A DNA stretch of 64,000 nucleotides, taken from Minisyncoccota bacterium. GTDB taxonomy: Bacteria; Patescibacteriota; Minisyncoccia; UBA9983. Position 1 is the first letter of the stretch. Each line of letters starts with the position of its first letter. The position numbers and the translations under genes are program-made. The notes beneath the pieces are model-generated. The model saw only the letters and a list, made by a program, of their open reading frames with translations, was not told the origin of the DNA and ran no database searches. Below are positions 695-53,285 of the stretch, piece after piece. The stretch spans positions 12,801 through 76,800 of the forward strand of contig JBAZPC010000003.1 in NCBI GenBank assembly GCA_041648395.1. Direction: 5' to 3'.

Positions 695-985
695 ATGAAG
701 CAAGAGAAAATACGCGAACAAATTTATAAACAACTTCCTTTAATAAAGAGCAAATATAATGTAAAAAAGATTGGGGTTTTTGGCTCGTTTGTCCGAGGTG
801 AGCAAAAGAAAGGGAGCGATGTTGATATTTTGGTGGAATTTAAAAGTCCTATCGGATTTTTTGAATTTATTCGGTTGGAAAATTTCTTAAGCCACACCTT
901 ACACAAGAAAGTGGACTTGGTTTCTAAAAAATCTATCAAGCCGGCGGTTAAAAAAGAAATTATGAGAGAAGTGCAATATGTCTAA
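695..985 (+). CDS. nucleotidyltransferase-domain antitoxin (MNT of MNT/HepT pair)
   Basis: GVFGSFVRGE...GSDVDILVEF minimal nucleotidyltransferase motif. Overlaps the next ORF by 8 nt. Confidence 0.7.
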   Translation: MKQEKIREQIYKQLPLIKSKYNVKKIGVFGSFVRGEQKKGSDVDILVEFKSPIGFFEFIRLENFLSHTLHKKVDLVSKKSIKPAVKKEIMREVQYV

Positions 986-1322
986 AAGAGGAATTAAACT
1001 TTATCTCGGAGATATAAAAGATTCTATTAGAAAAATAGAAAAGTATACGCGCGGTGTTAATTTTGCTGATTTTTCAGGCGATGAAGAATTGATTGACGCG
1101 GTGGCTAGGAACATTTCTATAATAGGCGAAGCCGTCATAAATATACCCGGTGAAATAAAAACAAAAAATCCTGATGTGGCGTGGAAAGAAATAAAGGGCA
1201 TGAGGAACAAAGTCATTCATGAATATTTTGGTGTTGATGAGGAAATTTTGTGGAAAACTATTCAGGAAGATATCCCAGTGTTCAAAAAGCAAATCAACAA
1301 GCTTTTGAAGGGGATAAAATAA
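978..1322 (+). CDS. HepT-like (DUF86) RNase toxin
   Basis: Rx4HxY motif (RNKVIHEY), ~114 aa, translationally coupled to the MNT ORF. Confidence 0.7.
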   Translation: MSKRGIKLYLGDIKDSIRKIEKYTRGVNFADFSGDEELIDAVARNISIIGEAVINIPGEIKTKNPDVAWKEIKGMRNKVIHEYFGVDEEILWKTIQEDIPVFKKQINKLLKGIK

Positions 1323-18906: not shown

Positions 18907-18980
18907 GCTAGGGAAGCTCAAGTGGCAAGAGCGCCAGACTCTAAATCTGGAGGTTGGCGGTTCAAATCCGCCCCCTGGCA
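18907..18980 (+). tRNA. type-I tRNA with anticodon CUA (reads UAG; putative amber suppressor, amino-acid identity unknown)
   Basis: Acceptor GCTAGGG/CCCTGGC (U3-G70), disc A73. D arm GCTC-AAGTGGCAA-GAGC. Anticodon arm CCAGA-CTCTAAA-TCTGG. Variable loop AGGTT. T arm GGCGG-TTCAAAT-CCGCC. Confidence 0.7.
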
Positions 18981-21531: not shown

Positions 21532-23268
21532 CTAGAATTTATAAATAAATATTGACGAGCCTGCTCGAGCAACCGGTTCTTTTCCTTTCAGCCAGGAATA
21601 AGTGTCATCCGGTTTTATCGTGAATCCGCGCACAGGTTTTGCTATTGAGCCCTCGCGGGCGTTGGCGGATATGGCAAACCACGAGCCGGCGGACGGCTGA
21701 CCTTTTGATGACCACCAATCCTCATATTTGTCGCCGAAATAATATTTGCCGTCGCCGCCGCCGAAATAATGCAAATCAATTTTGTTGACGCTGTTCTCGT
21801 CCATCCAATCGCGCAGCCGCTTCATATCCTGTCCCCAGTCGTAATTTGAGTCGGTGGCGATTTTATAACCGTTGGCCGTACCGCCGGCAAGAATATTGTA
21901 ATAAGAAAGATAGTAAGGATAAGTGACGATTGTTGAAATAAACATAACGGCAAGCAAAATCCCCGTGAGTATGGTTTTGTTAAATTTGGCTATCACTAGC
22001 GCCACTAAAAAATAAGCGAAGGGCAGAATCGGCATAATGTGACGATGGCCGATATTTAAATTTCCGGTGATTGATTGGAAAACGTAGAAGGCGATAAAAA
22101 ATAAACTGGCGATGATGGTAAAATTATTCTTCATCCATTCGCGCGAAAAAGTTGAGCGCCCTCCTGCGCGGGCAAGAGAAATACTTTTTATGGCAAAGAA
22201 AATGGCGATAATAGTGAGAATATGAAAAATCAAACTTTCTTTGAATAGATAAAGGGTCGGGAAATACCATGGCGTCGCTTCGGAATAAACCGTTCCCATA
22301 AAATGCGAAGCGTTTCCTCCGCCCGCGCGTTGAACCACGGAAACGACGCCGAACAAATATTCAGCCAATGGTTTCAAAACATTCGTTCTTATCATCCACG
22401 CAAACGCAGGCATTGTTTTTCTGCCTAAATTGGAAGAGAGGGTGTCGCTTATGTCTTTTATTTGCAGGTCGCTCGGATAATTCCAGACGTGAAAAATATA
22501 AACAATATAAACAAGCGCCAAAGCAATCAATCCAATCATAATTATTTTCCAGAGTAAAGATAAAATTTTTCCCCTGTTAAGAATCCACCACAGCGCGACA
22601 AGGACAAAAAATATGGGCGCCAGGATGACGGTGGAAAATTTAAAAAGCAAGGCGACGCCCAAAAGCGCGCCGGCGATAAAAACATTTCTCCACGACTGAT
22701 TTTTTAAAAAAGCCAAAAAAGAGGCGATGGCGATAAAAAATCCGAAGGCCGCCGCCATGTCCGTGGTGACGTAGCGCGAGTGGGCGATGATGGTTGGTGA
22801 CATAGTGAAAAGGAAAAGTGTGAGAAAGCCAACTTTATCTCCGTAATTTTTTCGCGTCCAATAAAACAAAATCGCGCCGAACAAAACGGCAAGCAGTATC
22901 ATAGGCAGGCGGGCGAGACGGATTATTTTATCCGCGTCATTACCCGCTCGGTATAGAAAAATCTTTCCCATATCCCATTGGCGGCTAGAAATTTTTTCGC
23001 TCCAAGTCGGAATGTTTGTCGGAAAATTAAGATTTAAAAACATAAGCGGAAGAGCGGAAATGTCTTTCATTAACGGCGGGTGTTCAGGATTGAGGCGCAT
23101 ATCTTTCTGTGTCAGATAGGAATAGCCGGCGGGGATGTGCGCCACTTCGTCAAAAGTGGCAGTTTCGTCCCAAGCGGAAAGGAACGACAGCGCGAACATC
23201 AGCGCCAGCAGGCCGCCCGCGGCGATCCGCCAGCCGGCGGATACAAAATTGTTTTTTATTTTATCCAT
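21532..23268 (-). CDS. GT-C family membrane glycosyltransferase (PMT/ArnT-like)
   Basis: ~12 predicted TM helices and a C-terminal soluble domain. Tandem with a second GT-C gene. Confidence 0.6.
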   Translation of the reverse strand: MDKIKNNFVSAGWRIAAGGLLALMFALSFLSAWDETATFDEVAHIPAGYSYLTQKDMRLNPEHPPLMKDISALPLMFLNLNFPTNIPTWSEKISSRQWDMGKIFLYRAGNDADKIIRLARLPMILLAVLFGAILFYWTRKNYGDKVGFLTLFLFTMSPTIIAHSRYVTTDMAAAFGFFIAIASFLAFLKNQSWRNVFIAGALLGVALLFKFSTVILAPIFFVLVALWWILNRGKILSLLWKIIMIGLIALALVYIVYIFHVWNYPSDLQIKDISDTLSSNLGRKTMPAFAWMIRTNVLKPLAEYLFGVVSVVQRAGGGNASHFMGTVYSEATPWYFPTLYLFKESLIFHILTIIAIFFAIKSISLARAGGRSTFSREWMKNNFTIIASLFFIAFYVFQSITGNLNIGHRHIMPILPFAYFLVALVIAKFNKTILTGILLAVMFISTIVTYPYYLSYYNILAGGTANGYKIATDSNYDWGQDMKRLRDWMDENSVNKIDLHYFGGGDGKYYFGDKYEDWWSSKGQPSAGSWFAISANAREGSIAKPVRGFTIKPDDTYSWLKGKEPVARAGSSIFIYKF

Positions 23269-24734
23269 ACTTTTATTACACCAGAAGGAACAAGCCCTTC
23301 ATCTTTTTTAAAAATATATTTGATATTTTTTTCTTTCTGATATTTTTCCAAATAAGTGTCGGTTAAAAACATAACCGTGTTGACCGACATTGGCATATTT
23401 TGATTTTCCGATTCCATGATAACGTATTTGGGCGTTTCTTTCGGCAGGGAATTAAGATAATTGGCCGTGTCGGCGGCATCTTTGGAAAAAGCGCTCGGGA
23501 CATTAGGGTTGTTTGCCCATTTTATAAAATATTGGTTGAATGTCTGAAGAGAAACAAGAGTGAATAAAATAATAACCAGAACTGCGGCCTTCTGGGGAAT
23601 TTTTTGAAGAACAGCATCAAGGCCGAGGGCGGCGAAAATCATAACGGCAGGAATAACAATAATGGCGCGCAGGGCATGCGGAATACCTTCGTTTGAAATC
23701 ATGACAGGAGCGAGGGCGAGAATAATCCATAAAACGAGTAACGCGTAACGGGGGACGAGGAATTTTTTAAAACTTATTACCAACCCTATTAAAAACAATG
23801 CCGCCACTGGCCACCAGAGTTCGGGCGCGCCGGCGAAGTTGTGCCGCCAGTTGAAATCGCCCGCCACAAAAAACATGCCAATAGTGAGGACGACATTTTT
23901 CCCAAGATCAAAGAGGGGAGTGGGGGAAGTGAAAACGGAAACCTGCGAAGTCCGGCCGAGGAACTCGCTGGGATGGACATAAAAGTAAACAGCCAGAGGC
24001 ATTACGGCGATAAAAATTCCCAGCAGAAAAATAAGTATCTCTTTAAAATATTTATCTTTTAATAAAATTATAAAAGCCGGAATCAAAAGAATTGGCATGA
24101 CGCGGTAGGCGATATAGGAATGGAAACCAAAGCCGAAAATGAGACCGGCGAAAAAAAGAGCGGCAGAGGAAATTATTTTTTTTCTGTGCAATTCCACGTG
24201 CTGTTGGGAGTGAAGCCGTTGGGCGAGAGAATCAGGAAATTCATCTTTATGGTCTTCTTTGGGAATGAGTCGCCAAAGCAGCCACAATCCCCAAACCAAA
24301 AAAAACGGCGCCATGATAGCGCGAAAACCGATGCGGGAAAAATTTATGTGCCAATAACTTGTCGCCAAAAAAAACGAAGCGAAGAGGGCGACGGACTCTT
24401 TTTTAAATAACCCTTTCGTTAAAAGATAAAGTCCGAGTATGGTAAAAATTCCAAACATCGCGCTCACGCCTCGCAACGCCCACGGCTTGTTGCCGAAAAT
24501 CTGCACGGACAGCGCCTGGATGTTTATGAACAATCCCTCGCGGCCGTTGTTTTCGGGATAAAAAACTTTGTAGTTTCCTGTGTCATTCGCTTCCAGGGTG
24601 TTTATGCCATTCACCGCCTCGTCCGAAAAAAGCCCCGGCGGGATGGTTGTTATCTGATAGAAGCGAAAAAACGCGGCAAGAGCCAAAATGGCGAACAAAA
24701 CAATCGTCCTATTTTTTCTCAACCATTCTTCCAT
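23256..24734 (-). CDS. GT39/GT83 (ArnT/PMT-like) membrane glycosyltransferase
   Basis: Start taken at MEEWLRKNRTIV. DE motif in the first loop (LFSDEAVNG). Multi-TM. Confidence 0.65.
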   Translation of the reverse strand: MEEWLRKNRTIVLFAILALAAFFRFYQITTIPPGLFSDEAVNGINTLEANDTGNYKVFYPENNGREGLFINIQALSVQIFGNKPWALRGVSAMFGIFTILGLYLLTKGLFKKESVALFASFFLATSYWHINFSRIGFRAIMAPFFLVWGLWLLWRLIPKEDHKDEFPDSLAQRLHSQQHVELHRKKIISSAALFFAGLIFGFGFHSYIAYRVMPILLIPAFIILLKDKYFKEILIFLLGIFIAVMPLAVYFYVHPSEFLGRTSQVSVFTSPTPLFDLGKNVVLTIGMFFVAGDFNWRHNFAGAPELWWPVAALFLIGLVISFKKFLVPRYALLVLWIILALAPVMISNEGIPHALRAIIVIPAVMIFAALGLDAVLQKIPQKAAVLVIILFTLVSLQTFNQYFIKWANNPNVPSAFSKDAADTANYLNSLPKETPKYVIMESENQNMPMSVNTVMFLTDTYLEKYQKEKNIKYIFKKDEGLVPSGVIKVWIK

Positions 24735-24764
24735 TGATTTATATTTTATCGTATAATTAAAACA

Positions 24765-25130
24765 ATGGAAAGCGAAATTGAATATCTTAAACAAAGGATT
24801 GCGGAGCTGGAGAAGCAGGACGTTAATAAAGAAAAGCCGGAGATAATAAAAGAGGCGATTAATGAGCATGTTGAAAAACAGCCGAAGGAGTTTTCCGGCG
24901 CGGAGCAAAAATTTTCCCAGCAGGAAATACAAGCACGCTCTCAAAAAATAAGTGAGATGAAATCGGGGGAGGCGGGACACAATGACCAGGTGGCCGAACT
25001 TCTTCAAATCGCGCATGATAAGGGAATCCTGAACGCCGTTTCTGTAGTTAGGGCGACAGACGACCCGCACCTTGAAGACGAATTTCACGACGCGCTGGTA
25101 AAATATTTCCAAAACGTTAAAAATGTTTAG
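24765..25130 (+). CDS. hypothetical coiled-coil protein (121 aa)
   Basis: Heptad-rich N-terminus. Overlaps the next gene start by 8 nt (operon). Confidence 0.4.
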   Translation: MESEIEYLKQRIAELEKQDVNKEKPEIIKEAINEHVEKQPKEFSGAEQKFSQQEIQARSQKISEMKSGEAGHNDQVAELLQIAHDKGILNAVSVVRATDDPHLEDEFHDALVKYFQNVKNV

Positions 25131-27540
25131 CTCCCAAATTTCTTTTTATATTTTTCTCTTGCTGGTATTTTTTTTAGTTGTTGTTATTCCCGCGTGGCTT
25201 TTGGCGGGCTATTTTAAAAAGAAAAAAGATATCAGCAAGGCGCTCAATCTTGTTCTCTTTGAAATAACTTTTCCCCAAACCGGCGGATTGCAGGAAGGCG
25301 AAAAGAAAAATTTCAAAGAACTGGTGGCGGCGATGGAGCAATTCTACGCCGGCATGTCTGCCTTCGGCCATTATTTCGCGCTTGAAATCGGCTTGCCTTA
25401 TTTTGGCGACGAAATAGTTTTTTACGCCGCTGTGCCCAAAGACAAAAGCCAACTTTTTGAAAAACAGGTACAAGGGCTTTATCCATTAGCAAGAACGGAA
25501 ATTAAAAAAGACGATTACAATATTTTTAGACCCCAAGGATATTCGTTCGGTACAATTATCAAATTAAAACAGAACGCAATTTTGCCGATTAAGACCTACG
25601 ACAAATTTGAACTGGACCCTCTCCAAATTATCGTCAATGTTTTTTCCAAACTGCAGAAGGAGGGCGAGGGGGCGGCGTTGCAAATTATCGTTTCTCCGTC
25701 CGACGATTCCATTATTAAAAAAGCGAAAACGGCGGCGTCCAAAATGAAAAGCGGAAAAAGTTTCAGAGAGGCAAGCCACGACAAAGGCCTGATTGGCGAG
25801 ATGATAGGTGATTTAGAAGCGGCGTTTTTTGGCAGTCCGCACAACGAGAAAAAAAATAAAGAAGAACCGAAACCAGTGGACGACGAAATAGTGAAGCTCT
25901 TGGAAAGCAAGGCGTCAAAACAGGCGATGCCGGCGAACGTCCGCCTCGTCATTTCCGCCGAAGACAAATCCAAGGCGGAACTTATTTTATCGGAATTGGA
26001 AAGCGCGTTTTTGCAGTTCAATGAAACGCAAGGGAACAGCTTTTATTTCATCCGTCCGTCCGGCCGCCGGCTCAAAAATTTCTTTCATGATTTTTCTTTC
26101 AGGATTCCCCGAAAAGACGACGCCATTCTTTTAAACACAGCCGAGCTTACTTCGCTTTTTCATTTTCCATCCGACTTCACCTCCGCCGTCGCGCCCCAGC
26201 TGAAATATTCGCGGCTGAAAGAAGCGGCGCCGCCGTTGAATCTGCCGCAGTCAGGGCTTCTTCTCGGCAAAAGCGTTTTCAGGGGCGAAGAGAAAAATGT
26301 TTTTATAAATGAAGACGACAGGCGAAGGCATTTTTACATCATCGGCCAGACGGGCACAGGCAAGTCCGTTCTGCTTAAGAATATGATTGCCCAAGACATT
26401 GAAGCGGGACGCGGTGTTTGCTTCATTGACCCGCATGGCTCCGACCTTCAGGATATTCTCTCGCGCATACCAAAAGAACGCGTTGACGATTTGATTTATT
26501 TCAATCCCGGCGATGTCCAGCGCCCGATGGGACTCAATATGCTTGAATACGACCAGAATTATCCGGAACAAAAAACTTTTATTGTCAACGAACTGCTCGG
26601 CATCTTTAATAAACTTTTTGATATGAAGACCGCCGGCGGACCGATGTTTGAACAATATTTTAGAAATGCCGTAATGCTGGTGATGGACGACCCCGCCTCT
26701 GGCAACACGCTTTTTGAAGTGAGCAGAGTTTTGAGCGACAAGGCATTCCGCGAGCTTAAATTATCAAAATGTTCCAATCCGATTACCAAATCATTTTGGA
26801 AAGAAGTGGCGGAGAAGGCGGGCGGAGAGGCGTCGCTTGCCAACATGGTGCCTTACATCACCAGCAAGTTTGATAATTTTCTTTCCAACGACATCATGCG
26901 TCCGATAATCTCGCAGGAAAAATCGGCATTCAATTTCAGAAAAGCGATGGACGAAGGAAAAATTCTGCTGGTCAATCTTTCTAAAGGGCGGCTCGGCGAC
27001 CTCAACTCAAATCTTCTCGGGCTTATCATTGTCGGCAAACTTTTGATGGCGTCATTGTCGCGCGCGGATATGGCGGAGAGCGAACGCAAAGATTTTTATC
27101 TTTACATTGACGAATTCCAAAACGTGACGACCGATTCCATCGCCACCATTCTTTCCGAGGCGAGAAAATATAAATTGGATTTAACTATCGCGCATCAATA
27201 TATCGGCCAGCTGGAAGAGAGCATCAAGAAGGCGGTGTTCGGCAACGTTGGTTCTATGGCGGCGTTTAGAATTGGTGCGGAGGACGCGGAATTTTTGAAG
27301 AATCAATACGAACCGGTTTTCAATTCTCACGACCTCCTCAACATTGATAATTACAACGCCTACCTTAAGCTTTTGGTGGAGGGTCAGACGTCGCGGCCGT
27401 TCAACATCCAAACCGTTGCGTTTAAAAAAGGCAACCCCGAGCTTGGCAAAATGATGGCGCAATTGTCGTCATCGCGCTACGGCAGGACAAAAATGGAAGT
27501 GGAAGAGGAGATAAATAAAAGATATAATATTCAGACATGA
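25123..27540 (+). CDS. membrane-anchored P-loop ATPase, VirD4/TraG/HerA(DUF87)-like, with an uncharacterised N-terminal domain
   Basis: TM helix. Walker A IIGQTGTGKS, IDPHGSD, Walker B LYIDEFQN, TIAHQYIGQL. N-terminal 300 aa paralogous to the 57406..58578 protein. Confidence 0.6.
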   Translation: MFSSQISFYIFLLLVFFLVVVIPAWLLAGYFKKKKDISKALNLVLFEITFPQTGGLQEGEKKNFKELVAAMEQFYAGMSAFGHYFALEIGLPYFGDEIVFYAAVPKDKSQLFEKQVQGLYPLARTEIKKDDYNIFRPQGYSFGTIIKLKQNAILPIKTYDKFELDPLQIIVNVFSKLQKEGEGAALQIIVSPSDDSIIKKAKTAASKMKSGKSFREASHDKGLIGEMIGDLEAAFFGSPHNEKKNKEEPKPVDDEIVKLLESKASKQAMPANVRLVISAEDKSKAELILSELESAFLQFNETQGNSFYFIRPSGRRLKNFFHDFSFRIPRKDDAILLNTAELTSLFHFPSDFTSAVAPQLKYSRLKEAAPPLNLPQSGLLLGKSVFRGEEKNVFINEDDRRRHFYIIGQTGTGKSVLLKNMIAQDIEAGRGVCFIDPHGSDLQDILSRIPKERVDDLIYFNPGDVQRPMGLNMLEYDQNYPEQKTFIVNELLGIFNKLFDMKTAGGPMFEQYFRNAVMLVMDDPASGNTLFEVSRVLSDKAFRELKLSKCSNPITKSFWKEVAEKAGGEASLANMVPYITSKFDNFLSNDIMRPIISQEKSAFNFRKAMDEGKILLVNLSKGRLGDLNSNLLGLIIVGKLLMASLSRADMAESERKDFYLYIDEFQNVTTDSIATILSEARKYKLDLTIAHQYIGQLEESIKKAVFGNVGSMAAFRIGAEDAEFLKNQYEPVFNSHDLLNIDNYNAYLKLLVEGQTSRPFNIQTVAFKKGNPELGKMMAQLSSSRYGRTKMEVEEEINKRYNIQT

Positions 27541-28172
27541 AGAAAAACGACTTAGTAATGGCTTTAGTTCTCGGCGAAGTTTGCGCTTGGTTGATGTTTT
27601 TAATAGGAAAGAATTTAGCATTGGAAAATCCGGCGATGGCGGTGGCTTTGCCGTATTTTAAGTATTTGCCGATTGTTTTTCCTGTTCTTTGCGCGCTTGG
27701 ATTGGCGGCAGCTTATTTCATCAGCAAAATAATCCCGATTGTTTATCAGCTCGGAAAATTTATTCTGGTAGGCGGAACGAATTTCCTCATTGATATGGGC
27801 GTGCTCAATTTTCTTATTTTTTACACCGGCATTTCCGCGGGCCTGCCGCAGTCGGGCTTCAAGGGAGTTTCTTTTTTGGTGGCCGTTTGGAATAGTTATT
27901 TTTTGAATAAATATTGGACATTCAAAAGGGAAACAACTGAAAGCGCGATGAAAGAATTTTCCCAATTTCTTATTGTCACACTCATCGGCTTTGCCATAAA
28001 TCTTGGCGTGGATTACGTTGCTGTTAATATGATAAACCCGCTGGGGGGAATGTTGCCGAAGACATGGGCGCAAGTGGGAGCGATAATTGCCGCCGTCACA
28101 GCGCTGGGATGGAACTTCCTTGGCTACAAATTTTTAGTTTTTGAAACGAAACCAAAAGAGGCGATAAAATAA
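27537..28172 (+). CDS. GtrA-family polysaccharide-synthesis membrane protein
   Basis: ILVGGTNFLIDMGVLNFL...NKYWTFK GtrA motifs. ATGA start/stop overlap with the upstream gene. Confidence 0.55.
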   Translation: MKKNDLVMALVLGEVCAWLMFLIGKNLALENPAMAVALPYFKYLPIVFPVLCALGLAAAYFISKIIPIVYQLGKFILVGGTNFLIDMGVLNFLIFYTGISAGLPQSGFKGVSFLVAVWNSYFLNKYWTFKRETTESAMKEFSQFLIVTLIGFAINLGVDYVAVNMINPLGGMLPKTWAQVGAIIAAVTALGWNFLGYKFLVFETKPKEAIK

Positions 28173-39626: not shown

Positions 39627-39674
39627 TAAAATTATATTATCAGAATAATATTATTAATAATTTAGTATAAATAT

Positions 39675-39929
39675 ATGCAAGACAACAAAAAAGTGATTTT
39701 GATAGCCGTGGTCGCAATAATTTTAGGGCTGGCGGGCGGATATTACGCCGGCAATTTGCAAGGCAATAAAGCGGGAATTGCTTCCGGCCGCCAGCAGGTT
39801 CTAGACGAGCAAAAGAAGGTGCAGGAGGAGGCGCTGAAAGCGGCGCAGAAAGCCGCCAATCCGTTTTCCGACGTGACGGAAAAAGCGAATCCGTTCAAAG
39901 ACGTTTATACGAATCCTTTCGCGCAATAA
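39675..39929 (+). CDS. hypothetical small membrane-anchored protein
   Basis: Single N-terminal TM, coiled-coil remainder. Confidence 0.4.
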   Translation: MQDNKKVILIAVVAIILGLAGGYYAGNLQGNKAGIASGRQQVLDEQKKVQEEALKAAQKAANPFSDVTEKANPFKDVYTNPFAQ

Positions 39930-39933
39930 AAAT

Positions 39934-41550
39934 ATGGCAAGCAAAAAATTTGCAAGCAAAAAAATATTTTTGAATGTTGCCGCTATAATTTTTTCTTTGG
40001 GAATCATCAGTGTCGCCAATGCGGTGAACCCTTTTGATATTTCCTATCCCGTGGCGGAACTGGGAAATTGTGGTTCACAGGAAGAGTGTAAGTCGTTTTG
40101 TGACAATCCCGACAATCAGGTCGCGTGCGTTGAATGGGCGCAAGGCAAGGGCTTTGTGACGGAGGGAGAAGTTAAGCGGGTCAAGGACATGAGGAGATTT
40201 GATGATGGAGCAGCGCCGATAGAGGACTTCGGCCCTAATGGGTGCAAAACCCCGCAGGAATGTGACGCGTTCTGTAAGGTTTTAGAAAACTTAAACGAGT
40301 GTTTGAGTTATAGTGTTTCTCATGGGTATATGCCTCAAGAAGAGGCGGACAAGATATTGGCAAAAGTAAACAAAGGAGGCCCCGGCGGATGCAAGGGTCC
40401 GCAGGAATGCGATACATTTTGCCGCAATCCGGAAAATATTGAGACATGTATGAACTTTGCCGTTGAGGATGGGAAAATCAGCAAAGAAGAAGCGGACTTT
40501 ATAATAACCCAGACGAAAGAATTCGGCGCCGGACATGGAAGAAAAGGGGGGGCAGGAAAATCAGGCCAACAACGCGGACCGGCGGAACCGAAAATTGACG
40601 AGCAAAAAGCGCTAAAGGTCTTAGAAGAAAAAGGCGGAGGACCGGGCGGGTGCAAATCAATGGAGGAATGCGGAAATTATTGCGGCACTCCGGAACACGG
40701 AGAAGAGTGCATGAACTTTGCCGTTGAGAACGGATTCATGCCTCCGGAGGAAATGGAAAAAGCAAAAAAAATGATGACGATGGCAGGTCCCGGCGGATGC
40801 AAAGGTCCGCAGGAATGCGACGCATATTGCAGCCAGGAAGGCCATGGCGAAGAGTGTATGAATTTTTCTCTGCAAAACGGATTAGTATCGCCTGAAGAAG
40901 GGGAGAAAATGAAGAGAGAAATGGAAATTGTCAAAAAGCTTCAAGGGGGAGGAATGTCCGGCCCGGGCGGGTGCAAGGGTCCGCAGGAATGCCAGGCTTA
41001 TTGTTCGGACCAATCTCACATGGAGGAGTGCATGAGTTTTGCCACTCAAAACGGAATGATGAACAGAGGCGATGCTAATATGAGAATGCAACAAGTGCAA
41101 GACGCGCAATCAATGATACAAATGGGAGAACAAAGCAGACAAAGATTCATGATGCCTCCTCAAGGGGGCCTGCCCGATGGCAAGGCGGGCGAAATGGGTC
41201 CGCCTCCCGAAGGATTTCGGGGATTTATGTCGCCACCGCCTGGCAGTATGCAACCACCGCCACAAGGAGGAATGCTGCCTCCGGAAGGATACCAAATGCC
41301 GCCTCAGGGAATAATGCCACCAACGACAGGAGGAGGTTTTGTTCCGCCTGGGGGATTTATACCGCCGCCATATGGCAGTATGCAGCCGCCACCGGGAATG
41401 ATGCAGCCAGCGAATATGATGCCACCGGAAGGAATGATACAGCCACCGCCGACAAATATGATACCTCCTCCGCCATCAGAACTGATGCCGTCTACTAATT
41501 TACCTGGGCTTATTCTTAAGCCGTTTCTGGATATTTTTAGGGCTTGGTAG
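39934..41550 (+). CDS. secreted/anchored cysteine-rich repeat protein with Pro/Gln/Met-rich low-complexity tail
   Basis: Signal/TM at the N-terminus. About 7 repeats of ~45 aa: GPGGCKGPQECD(A/T)(F/Y)C...E(E/T)CMNFA..NG. C-terminal PPxG/MxPP tract. Confidence 0.55.
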   Translation: MASKKFASKKIFLNVAAIIFSLGIISVANAVNPFDISYPVAELGNCGSQEECKSFCDNPDNQVACVEWAQGKGFVTEGEVKRVKDMRRFDDGAAPIEDFGPNGCKTPQECDAFCKVLENLNECLSYSVSHGYMPQEEADKILAKVNKGGPGGCKGPQECDTFCRNPENIETCMNFAVEDGKISKEEADFIITQTKEFGAGHGRKGGAGKSGQQRGPAEPKIDEQKALKVLEEKGGGPGGCKSMEECGNYCGTPEHGEECMNFAVENGFMPPEEMEKAKKMMTMAGPGGCKGPQECDAYCSQEGHGEECMNFSLQNGLVSPEEGEKMKREMEIVKKLQGGGMSGPGGCKGPQECQAYCSDQSHMEECMSFATQNGMMNRGDANMRMQQVQDAQSMIQMGEQSRQRFMMPPQGGLPDGKAGEMGPPPEGFRGFMSPPPGSMQPPPQGGMLPPEGYQMPPQGIMPPTTGGGFVPPGGFIPPPYGSMQPPPGMMQPANMMPPEGMIQPPPTNMIPPPPSELMPSTNLPGLILKPFLDIFRAW

Positions 41551-42442
41551 ATCTATTACCCCTCAAAAAATCTTCATAAAGCATTTCGTTTTTGCCTTCC
41601 GGTTTGACGCGTTTGATGGCGAGTTTACCGTCTTCTATTTCTACTTCGGTTATTATGATTCTTTTGCCGTGCCCGCCATCGCTACGCTCAGGCGTTGCGG
41701 GCGGGTTGTTTAGAAAAAAATAAGTCCCAGGCCATGGAGTTAGAGCGCGGACTTTGCGCGCGATGTTTTCCGCCGGCTCGTTCAAATTTATTAAGCTGTC
41801 TTCTTTTGTTATTTTTTTGGTGAAAGTCGCTTGGCTATGATCTTGCTCTTGCGTCTTTATTTTTCCTTCAATCCAATCGGGAATAACTTTCACAAGCAGC
41901 TCACCACCTAACTCCGCCAGTTTTTCTTCCAACTCTTTGTGATATAACTTGGAACTTAGAGCTTGGAGCTTGGAGCTTGCGACAATGTCGCCGTGGTCAA
42001 CTTCCTCGTCTATTTTTATTATCGTCACCCCCGTTTCTTCTTCATCGCTCAAAATAAATGACTGGATAGGCGAGGGACCGCGGAATTTCGGCAGAAGAGA
42101 AGGATGGACATTAAGCGCGCCGTATTTCGGAATGTTTAAAATTTCAAGAGGAATAATTTTGCCGTAATCGGCGACAATGAATAGGTCTGGCTTGAATCTT
42201 GAAACTTGAATCATGAAACTCGAATCTAGTTTATCTGGCTGGTCTAATTTTATGTTCCATGTTTTATGTTCCATGTTCCATAACTTTACCGGTGACGGCT
42301 GGAGTTCCATTTTTCTGCCTTTTGGCTTGTCGGGCGTGGTGACAACCAATTCCGGTACAAAGCCGTTCTGGCATAAAACTTCCAAAACCTTCGCGGCAAA
42401 ATCCCCGGTGCCAAAAAAAACGAATTTAACGCCGTTTTTCAT
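41537..42442 (-). CDS. fmt: methionyl-tRNA formyltransferase
   Basis: VKFVFFGTGDFAAKVLEVL. Formyltransferase core HPSLLPKFRG. Carries a GC-rich in-frame element and heptamer repeat tracts. Confidence 0.8.
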   Translation of the reverse strand: MKNGVKFVFFGTGDFAAKVLEVLCQNGFVPELVVTTPDKPKGRKMELQPSPVKLWNMEHKTWNIKLDQPDKLDSSFMIQVSRFKPDLFIVADYGKIIPLEILNIPKYGALNVHPSLLPKFRGPSPIQSFILSDEEETGVTIIKIDEEVDHGDIVASSKLQALSSKLYHKELEEKLAELGGELLVKVIPDWIEGKIKTQEQDHSQATFTKKITKEDSLINLNEPAENIARKVRALTPWPGTYFFLNNPPATPERSDGGHGKRIIITEVEIEDGKLAIKRVKPEGKNEMLYEDFLRGNRSTKP

Positions 42443-52864: not shown

Positions 52865-53104
52865 TTATTTTAAAAGAAGTCCACCGAGTTTTTCTCCACT
52901 TAATTCGTACTCGATTTGCGACTTGTAAATTTCTTCATCTTTGTTGGTGGGGATAGATGCGAGAGCAACCATGTATCCCAAAAGATATGATCTTCTCGCT
53001 CTGAGAACTTTTATTTCCTCGGCAATGCGCTCTTTTTTTGTTCTTTTTTGATCAAGAATAAAACCAAGAGCAAGTAAAACGATGCCTATAAAAATAATCT
53101 CCAT
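52865..53104 (-). CDS. hypothetical small membrane protein
   Basis: N-terminal TM. RBS GGAGG. Confidence 0.35.
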   Translation of the reverse strand: MEIIFIGIVLLALGFILDQKRTKKERIAEEIKVLRARRSYLLGYMVALASIPTNKDEEIYKSQIEYELSGEKLGGLLLK

Positions 53105-53131
53105 AACGACCTCCTATTTTACTGTTAATCT

Positions 53132-53211
53132 GCAAGATTTTATCCCACCAAGGCAAGATTTTATCCCACCAAGGCAAGATTTTATCCCACCAAGGCAAGA
53201 TTTTATTCTGC
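53132..53211. repeat. intergenic 21-nt tandem repeat GCAAGATTTTATCCCACCAAG, 3 perfect units plus 1 partial
   Basis: Units at 53132-53152, 53153-53173, 53174-53194, partial 53195-53211. Lies in the divergent promoter region between 52865(-) and 53286(+). Confidence 0.75.
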
Positions 53212-53285
53212 GATGAGTATAGCAAATTGTCAAAAAAAGTCAAGGGTTTTGTAAAAAAGTTATAACAAGAGTATAATATCGTCAT

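Follow-up and report, generated by a model that had tools for sequence, protein, structure and literature searches.

Helicobacter cysteine-rich proteins (Hcp; Sel1-like) are secreted and consist of tandem short alpha-helical repeats, each of which is locked by a disulfide between its helices. Gram-positive LPXTG/sortase substrates combine a signal peptide, binding domains, a Pro-rich wall-spanning region and a C-terminal anchor, and the Euplotes raikovi pheromones, the twin Cx3C/Cx9C small Tims and the CHCH proteins are very small helical units that depend on disulfides. Here we describe a gene on a 64,000-nucleotide (nt) stretch of DNA from a Minisyncoccota bacterium (contig JBAZPC010000003.1; this whole stretch is called the window) whose product recalls each of these in part. 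The gene (39934..41550, + strand) encodes an exported protein that comprises six helical repeat modules, a tail rich in Pro and a conserved peptide at the C-terminus, and it is consistently paired with a small gene, in the window and at 23 other loci. With moderate confidence, we read it as the large subunit of a two-gene envelope or surface module specific to Patescibacteria (candidate phyla radiation, CPR); its role would most likely be that of a structural scaffold or an adhesive surface component. In kind it is a surface protein; what is new are its domain, its end-piece and its partner.

Like Hcp, the window protein is secreted and built of tandem short helical repeats, and its disulfides are putative. 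However, its unit has three predicted helices and four cysteines (C-x5-C-x3-C-x8-C), whereas that of Hcp has two helices and two cysteines; moreover, its family is confined to Patescibacteria, and a Pro-rich tail, a C-terminal peptide and a gene for a partner come in addition. Sel1 and TPR were absent from the Pfam matches of the whole protein (E<=10) and of 38 two-repeat fragments that were scanned individually (E<=1), and no Hcp or SLR structures were retrieved by Foldseek. The layout of Gram-positive wall-spanning proteins (signal, repeated ectodomain, Pro-rich spacer, hydrophobic C-terminal end) is also shared, but regular expressions found no LPXTG, NPXTG or LAXTG motif in the window protein, and its C-terminal peptide of ~16 amino acids (aa) is amphipathic and does not have the format of a transmembrane (TM) helix followed by a basic tail. 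With the pheromones, small Tims and CHCH proteins it has in common tiny helical units, cysteines on helices and a Cx3C on one helix. The cysteine pattern and the inferred connectivity differ from theirs, and six of the units stand in tandem here, in a protein exported by a bacterium; the pheromone model E_raikovi_mat was matched by 6 of the 38 fragments, with a best E of 0.013, which is sub-threshold.

A cysteine-repeat family of Patescibacteria

The open reading frame (ORF) at 39934..41550 (+), which would encode an exported, Cys-stapled helical protein with six repeats, reads from ATG to TAA and gives 538 aa plus the stop. It is intact, and its product is 100% identical to a deposited NCBI entry, 'MAG: hypothetical protein WC587_01545 [Candidatus Paceibacterota bacterium]'. 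The DNA copies of the repeats share only 61-88% identity, which points to old duplications and excludes an assembly artefact.

The protein contains 24 cysteines, as opposed to 0-6 in typical proteins of the window, and all of them sit in six copies of C-x5-C-x3-C-x8-C. When the whole window was translated in six frames, the exact pattern turned up in this ORF alone, so it is not due to chance. An earlier sequence-only reading of this stretch had described about seven repeats of a ~45-aa unit. Counted by the cysteine pattern there are six, with a period of 49-58 aa, which grows to 87 aa where the linker separates repeats 3 and 4; the spacing that it had given, C-x5-C-x3-C-x(n)-C, is correct, and n is 8 in all six copies. 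All repeats are read from the + strand. Repeat 1 (40051..40194; aa 40-87; Cys 46/52/56/65) is an ELGNC variant and is followed by repeat 2 (40225..40368; aa 98-145; Cys 104/110/114/123) and by repeat 3 (40372..40515; aa 147-194; Cys 153/159/163/172), which carries the conserved helix EDGKISKEEADFI. Beyond the linker lie repeat 4 (40633..40776; aa 234-281; Cys 240/246/250/259), repeat 5 (40780..40923; aa 283-330; Cys 289/295/299/308) and repeat 6 (40954..41097; aa 341-388; Cys 347/353/357/366).

From 758 repeats we derived the consensus GPGGC[KR][SG]xEEC-xA[YF]C-xxPE[NH]xEEC-xxFAxxxG[LF][MI][SP]xEEA, position 16 of which is occupied by N in 57% of the repeats and by H in 40%. The 24 cysteines are invariant (24/24) across 54 six-repeat homologues that share 39-87% identity (alignment A3). 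The repeats of the window protein are 46-60% similar to the same-position repeats of distant homologues, compared with 38% to their sister repeats. The six-repeat array is therefore older than the divergence of these lineages, and each repeat position is individually constrained.

The sequence-only reading had suggested predicting the structure of one repeat. AlphaFold2 models the repeat as a three-helix unit, with a mean pLDDT (predicted local distance difference test) of 79 for residues 1-410 and of 92 for a model of repeats 2-3. The first cysteine (C1) is predicted with high confidence to lie in the GPGGC loop, C2 and C3 one turn apart on helix A, and C4 on helix B.

Searches against known families gave no assignment; a match of the repeats to a described domain family with an assigned function, which the sequence-only reading had named as grounds for discarding its proposal, was thus not found. 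The large protein had sub-threshold matches only in Pfam (AtDEF-like, 22.8 bits against a cut-off of 25; SPP1_GP23-1, 20 against 27), no NCBIfam family at E<=10, no matches in PHROGs or PADLOC and nothing significant among the sequences of the PDB. A profile of 82 diverse single repeats retrieved only the Ku70 SAP domain from the PDB sequences (E=1.6), and the Foldseek search of the PDB gave no significant structural match.

A recurrent likeness covers about 20 residues only: the stretch helix B-loop-helix C, 'G-x-[IM]-[ST]-x-E-E-A...', resembles SHOCT-like, DUF2680 (YckD) and SPP1 GP23.1 models in 20-31 of the 38 fragments. However, these scores are below the curated cut-offs, and those families have no cysteine framework. 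One short peptide pattern also led to a false positive in a Clostridia metagenome-assembled genome (MAG; JANQMT010000123.1, locus L023, 3803..4567, + strand): a DUF2680-like protein with a signal peptide and Cys-free repeats ('...AVEEGKLTQEEADEKLAELEERLENGDF'), which shares only the helix-capping motif of repeat 3. This match suggests that the B-loop-C half of the repeat is a DUF2680/SHOCT-type helical hairpin that occurs widely.

A word-indexed search with the large protein listed at least 1,475 relatives. All of those listed are unnamed, and every one with an organism label comes from Patescibacteria/CPR (Paceibacterota, Parcubacteria, Niyogibacteria, Staskawiczbacteria, Pacebacteria and Gracilibacteria). 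A HMMER search with a single-repeat profile against 1.84 billion cluster representatives, in line with the metagenome search that the sequence-only reading had proposed, detected 1,925 clusters at E<=1e-3, of which 1,663 remained at E<=1e-10 and 1,116 at E<=1e-30; again, every named match is from Patescibacteria. Counted at 50% identity, the family thus comprises ~1,900 clusters, and the spread of the scores (1,663 of 1,925 at E<=1e-10) indicates that the repeat is essentially confined to the multi-repeat architecture. Six repeats are present in 76 of the 120 best homologues, within a range of 4-12. In all named matches the family is restricted to Patescibacteria, and it matches no known family and no fold in the PDB. 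We found no published description of this CPR cysteine-rich repeat family in the literature searched. No relatives were found on viral contigs of IMG/VR, which leaves a viral origin without support.

Some relatives carry additional domains. A ConA-like lectin domain (Laminin_G_3) follows the repeats in the long members P0155, P0236 and P0239, and Kazal domains are appended C-terminally in P0104 and P0051, with one to three per protein in that sub-lineage. In P0124 the repeats are followed by a long Cys/Pro/Thr-rich extension. The appended lectin and Kazal modules fit extracellular display and decoration with binding modules. The sub-lineage of P0155, P0236 and P0239 also has an extra N-terminal domain, '...GLFTLT(M/I)..PQGI(Q/K)EFSL.P...', which occurs inside the tail of P0050 as well.

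The Kazal domains, being protease-inhibitor domains, and the sub-threshold matches also bear on whether the protein could be a secreted effector, that is, an antimicrobial of the defensin or toxin kind, or an inhibitor of proteases, directed against host or competitor cells. The cysteine spacing of the fragments grazes defensin, scorpion-toxin and Euplotes-pheromone models, in every case below threshold. AtDEF-like (PF25052) was rejected with its 22.8 bits over residues 8-70, that is, the signal peptide plus repeat 1, and so were Toxin_2 and gamma-thionin, which matched two-repeat fragments at E>=0.018. These matches, all below curated cut-offs, reflect cysteine spacing and the signal peptide, and the predicted all-alpha fold is unlike that of CS-alpha/beta defensins. 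Pfam found no Kazal match in the window protein itself, which was therefore not taken for a Kazal-type inhibitor, and PADLOC had no matches. Moreover, the conserved C-terminal peptide resembles an anchor, the partner is a membrane protein and the gene is single-copy in a housekeeping context (see below), all of which favours a cell-associated protein, and we regard a secreted effector as very improbable.

Inferred pairing of the four cysteines

The four cysteines are all retained in 835/835 repeats detected by a hidden Markov model (HMM), among which no degenerate full repeat was found that might have given a clue to their pairing. Such clues came from outside the canonical repeats. In the tails of 11 homologues, a degenerate half-repeat retains C3 and C4 only (e.g., RGDYCSDPAHFEECRGP and QQRDDFCSKPENAEQCRQ), with no other cysteine within 14 residues, and modules with only C1 and C2 are present in five homologues (e.g., PPCNSPEECAAL and GPGGCRTTEECVKFG). 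Three homologues contain repeats with six cysteines, in which an extra C-x9-C pair joins the end of helix B to the beginning of helix C. In addition, the cysteine count of the mature protein is even in 238 of 245 members, including ones with many cysteines outside the canonical repeats. Cysteines are thus gained and lost in pairs, with C1-C2 or C3-C4 surviving together, which argues for two sequential staples; the surviving pairs do not imply a knot and are hard to reconcile with a single Cys4 metal site. We infer that each repeat contains two sequential disulfides, C1-C2 and C3-C4.

Other observations point the same way. Kazal domains need disulfides, and in relatives they are part of the same polypeptides. 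For CPR bacteria, Méheust et al. (10.1101/335083) reported an enriched family of MdbA-like thiol-disulfide oxidoreductases, in which CxxC is conserved in 92% of the members and which often adjoins VKOR. The large protein has the traits of the class of disulfide-bonded exported proteins: an export signal, a conserved even number of cysteines, pairwise change of these, and a lineage for which oxidising machinery has been reported.

Alternatively, the four thiolates of each repeat might hold one Zn(II), Cu(I) or small cluster for extracytoplasmic metal binding or buffering, with N/H at position 16 helping in coordination and the Met-rich tail providing Cu(I) 'Mets' motifs. Four cysteines are indeed invariant in each repeat, and according to the model, with C2 and C3 one turn apart and C4 on the adjacent helix, the thiols could converge. 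However, the two-cysteine half-modules persist alone and extra cysteines come in pairs, there is no regularity of CxxC, CxxCH or MxxM, and Asn is commoner than His at position 16 (57% against 40%). The window protein is rich in Met (16 of the 118 residues of the tail, aa 401-518, and 39 overall), but this is not a trait of the family, whose tails have a median of 4.3% Met (interquartile range 1.3-7.6%); a copper 'Mets-motif' role of the tail was rejected because the Met-richness is lineage-specific. Inspection of the N-terminus (MASKKFASKKIF...) found no twin arginine (RR). A Sec-type signal without it means that no pre-loaded cofactor is exported, and a Tat-exported cofactor protein was rejected, as the large protein has no RR, CxxC or CxxCH motif. 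The disulfide-dependent Kazal domains in the same polypeptides of relatives count against metal binding as well, and we consider it quite unlikely.

The disulfide reading is thus favoured by the pairwise change of cysteines, the signal-like N-termini with even cysteine counts, the co-occurrence with Kazal domains, the MdbA/VKOR machinery reported in CPR bacteria and the lineage-specific Met content. The sequence-only reading had proposed 'disulfide-knotted or metal-binding ectodomains'. Of this, stabilisation by disulfides is retained, a knot is not, since sequential pairing is inferred, and metal binding has become less likely.

Export, C-terminal peptide and the small partner gene

The protein starts with a Sec-type signal peptide (39934..40023, +; aa 1-30), which consists of the basic n-region MASKKFASKK, a hydrophobic core with a maximum KD19 of 2.13 and a cleavage-type site 'ANA|V', where cleavage would take place according to the AXA rule. 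A signal-like N-terminus is present in 236 of 245 family members, which supports export; the N-terminal anchor or signal and the secretion noted in the sequence-only reading therefore stand. The mature protein would begin with the conserved motif (V)NPFDISYP (40024..40050, +), which leads into repeat 1 and for which alignment A3 gives the consensus NPFDIxYPIxELGNC. With an isoelectric point (pI) of 4.7, the mature head (aa 31-400) is acidic. Between repeats 3 and 4, the linker (40516..40632, +) has a disordered Gly/Lys/Arg-rich part at aa ~199-214, for which AlphaFold2 gives a pLDDT <50, followed by the conserved helix PKIDEQKALKVLEE, modelled at residues 223-233; the linker is conserved in alignment A3.

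The repeats are followed by a low-complexity Pro/Gly/Met/Gln tail (41134..41487, +; aa 401-518), a putative extended wall-spanning spacer. Besides Met, it contains 36 Pro residues plus Gly and Gln, and short DNA repeats are present in the stretch that encodes it. In the family as a whole, the median tail is 176 aa long, and Pro accounts for ~16% of the tail residues. The low-complexity Pro-rich tail that had been noticed in the window protein is therefore a conserved Pro-rich spacer of the family.

The gene ends with a conserved amphipathic hydrophobic end-piece (41488..41547, +; aa 519-538; ...PSTNLPGLILKPFLDIFRAW). Its last ~16 residues (aa ~523-538, LPGLILKPFLDIFRAW) have a hydrophobic moment of 0.55 and a maximum KD19 of 0.94 (family median 0.88), and a classical TM helix would be longer and less polar than this peptide. 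Almost every complete member closes with such an amphipathic small-xxx-small hydrophobic peptide of ~15 aa, the last residue of which is usually R/K; examples are GVILGPFLDIFR, GLIIDPFLNIFK and LLGNLVNAFLNLFR. Neither this conserved peptide nor the small gene upstream had been mentioned in the sequence-only reading, which had proposed a check for sortase signals. Regular expressions found no LP.T[GAS], NP.TG or LA.TG in the large protein, there is no sortase gene in the window, and known C-terminal sorting domains (PEP-CTERM, GlyGly-CTERM, PGF-CTERM and others) were not matched in NCBIfam at E<=10. When an HMM of the C-terminal motif was run against all ORFs of the window and of the loci collected by then, it matched Cys-repeat proteins alone. 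The idea of a general sorting signal found no support because, within the DNA sampled, the motif is confined to this family. Since the motif matches Cys-repeat proteins alone and no sorting model fits, the peptide looks like a family-specific anchor or docking element, as far as this limited sampling goes.

Directly upstream lies a small gene (39675..39929, +), whose 84-aa product combines a TM helix at the N-terminus with a charged helix and, at the C-terminus, three NPF motifs. The small gene stops 4 nt before the start of the large gene (TAA-AAAT-ATG). The AT-rich spacer in front of it (39627..39674, +) contains TATAAT-like boxes and is a candidate promoter of the two-gene unit, judged by inspection; a consensus scan called no site there. 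The TM helix is Gly-zipper-like (GLAGGYYAG; maximum KD19 2.39), and the C-terminus reads ANPF...ANPFKDVYTNPFAQ, with the last two NPF motifs invariant in 18 sequences.

The same kind of small gene is located directly upstream of the large gene, on the same strand and with a gap of -8 to +193 nt, at 21/21 distinct loci; it also lies directly upstream at two further divergent loci, so that the pairing holds in the window and at 23/23 distinct loci. The neighbours beyond the small gene differ among these homologous loci. The locus tags of NCBI independently show the adjacency (A2358_02870 by 02875; ABIG87_02840 by 02835). A profile search with the small protein gave 42 relatives of 53-124 aa, every labelled one of which is from Patescibacteria, and none of the 42 is fused to any other protein. 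The two most divergent small proteins that were followed, at loci L024 and L025, each precede a Cys-rich exported protein. That of L025 is a classical multi-repeat large protein. At L024 (4001..7839, +), on a Yanofskybacteria-type contig, a small protein of 81 aa with NP[FL] motifs (NPF/NPL) is followed by an exported protein of 1,197 aa, which contains one canonical GPGGC repeat besides several divergent helical modules with cysteines, has a very long region rich in Pro/Ser/Thr/Tyr/Cys and ends in a hydrophobic peptide. The L024 pair is flanked by Wzy_C/TPR, PMT and glycosyltransferase genes.

The invariance of the last two NPF motifs and the strict synteny of the pair bring up a further possibility, namely that the repeats are a modular peptide-recognition scaffold that binds NPF motifs, both those in the small partner and that at the N-terminus of the large protein itself. 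The result would be a multivalent envelope-spanning tether, which might be likened to EH-domain/NPF recognition or to the i-spanin/o-spanin pairs of phages. The mature large protein often starts with NPF(D/E)I; however, this N-terminal NPF is only semi-conserved, and NIF, SPF, GPL and ANL occur as variants. As with the spanins (Rz/Rz1), the two genes are adjacent, the small protein is a type-II membrane protein whose charged helix is juxtamembrane, and a Pro-rich segment, known from o-spanins, is present in the large protein. The small protein recurrently resembles Rz-like i-spanins (TM helix plus coiled coil), but its matches to eight Rz-like spanin PHROGs are weak (best E=6e-6, most ~1e-3; <=5 of the 18 members per family) and span the TM helix and the charged helix only, so that they may be due to composition, and we treat the likeness as an architectural resemblance and not as homology. 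In contrast to phage spanins, the locus is chromosomal and of housekeeping type, no relatives were found in IMG/VR, and the large partner matches no PHROG, has 538 aa and no lipobox, and is not a lipoprotein. CPR bacteria have been reported to have no outer membrane (10.1101/335083), to which a spanin-type function would be inapplicable. We therefore hold an NPF-recognising scaffold to be unlikely. Such a tether is a more specific and more novel version of the two-gene surface module that we favour.

Proposed envelope role and genomic surroundings

For that surface module, the following course of events can be proposed. After export and cleavage of the signal, the C1-C2 disulfide would cap helix A and the C3-C4 disulfide would staple the A-B hairpin, these bonds being made by oxidoreductases of the MdbA/VKOR type reported in CPR bacteria. 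The six modules would build a stable acidic head (pI 4.7), and the Pro-rich tail would be an extended spacer through the wall zone. The amphipathic small-xxx-small helix at the C-terminus may keep the large protein at the membrane, plausibly by packing on the Gly-zipper TM helix of its small, co-translated partner, and the NPF tail of the latter may touch the head as well. Some lineages would have added lectin (ConA-like) or Kazal modules to this surface component.

Several points weigh against this reading. The window contains no Dsb, MdbA or VKOR gene, and the C1-C2/C3-C4 pairing is drawn from half-repeats and helix positions alone. Anchoring to the membrane by the C-terminal peptide is speculative, and the maximum KD19 of that peptide, 0.94, is below the hydrophobicity of a TM helix. 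The proposed interaction between the small and the large protein derives from conserved adjacency, no fusions having been found. The housekeeping context (HPF, PCMT, Fmt, Def, PriA) gives no clue to function, and the idea of an adhesive role, which the sequence-only reading had raised as a possible surface adhesin for an epibiotic lifestyle, has only the indirect support of accessory domains (ConA-like lectin or Kazal) in a minority of relatives. A core envelope role fits the housekeeping, vertically inherited context equally well as an adhesin does.

The pair might even constitute a hitherto unrecognised device that organises the envelope or makes contact with hosts and that all sampled lineages of Patescibacteria share, the stapled modules being a new NPF-binding fold and the whole a monoderm 'spanin-like' tether. 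The Pro-rich stalk and the new amphipathic C-terminal anchor would then set the head at a fixed distance from the membrane. If true, the tether would set envelope architecture or mediate attachment to host cells; we think this improbable, to the same degree as the NPF scaffold. If the ordinary structural-surface reading is true, the result is a useful annotation and not a conceptual surprise.

Patescibacteria make up a large share of bacterial diversity, and to our knowledge almost nothing is known about their envelope and host contact beyond type IV pili. The gene pair, with ~1,900 clusters that fall in this one lineage in all named matches, is unnamed, and it lacks a model in Pfam and NCBIfam as well as a structural relative detected in the PDB. 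Its 50-aa module, predicted at pLDDT>90, is a tractable target on which a new domain family could be defined. The pair would also allow one to study how ultra-small, probably anaerobic bacteria use extracytoplasmic disulfides, and it may yield surface markers or handles for cultivating or imaging CPR cells. Its interest lies in size, conservation, restriction to a single lineage and tractability; its mechanism is not demonstrated as new.

In the window, the pair is preceded by genes for a SpoU methylase, HPF and PCMT and followed by Fmt, which is convergent, Def and PriA. The Fmt gene (41537..42442, -) and the large gene share 14 nt at their 3' ends (41537..41550); a comparable convergent 3' overlap, of 23 nt, is present at locus L001. 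The order HPF - small - large - Fmt - Def - PriA is common to a Pacebacteria MAG, whose large protein is 43% identical. That the gene order is shared despite this low identity indicates vertical inheritance. At other loci the neighbours vary and include Fmt/HPF, TopA, SLT plus type II secretion genes (T2SS-E/F) and a pilin, RsgA/PCMT and glycosyltransferases; functional inference from neighbours beyond the small partner was abandoned for this reason. Elsewhere the window contains HtrA, FtsQ, YceG, PMT-type glycosyltransferases and GtrA, and is ordinary Paceibacterota housekeeping DNA.

Some further features of the window were noted. Two adjacent large membrane proteins of 578 and 618 aa (21532..25112, -) both match PMT_2, a glycosyltransferase family of the dolichyl-phosphate-mannose type, and are candidates for glycosylating envelope proteins. 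The 805-aa protein at 25123..27540 (+) has signatures of VirD4/TraG-type coupling ATPases (T4SS-DNA_transf, TrwB_AAD_bind, TraG-D_C) and may be part of the type IV secretion system that recent literature describes for Patescibacteria; its gene is followed by that of a GtrA-family membrane protein (27537..28172, +). A genuine tRNA (18907..18980, +; Rfam tRNA, 65.6 bits), labelled 'tRNA-Pyl' by ARAGORN, has a CUA anticodon (amber/UAG) and may be a suppressor tRNA; the 52 window ORFs surveyed end in TAA (34), TGA (12) and TAG (6). A short ORF at 53052..53285 (-) with the exact tandem peptide KILPWWD x3 arises from a small intergenic DNA tandem repeat and is probably non-coding. Finally, two small overlapping ORFs of 96 and 114 aa (695..1322, +) contain the motif GVFGSFVRGE...DVDILV, which is typical of MNT proteins, and by eye they resemble a toxin-antitoxin pair of the nucleotidyltransferase/HEPN type.

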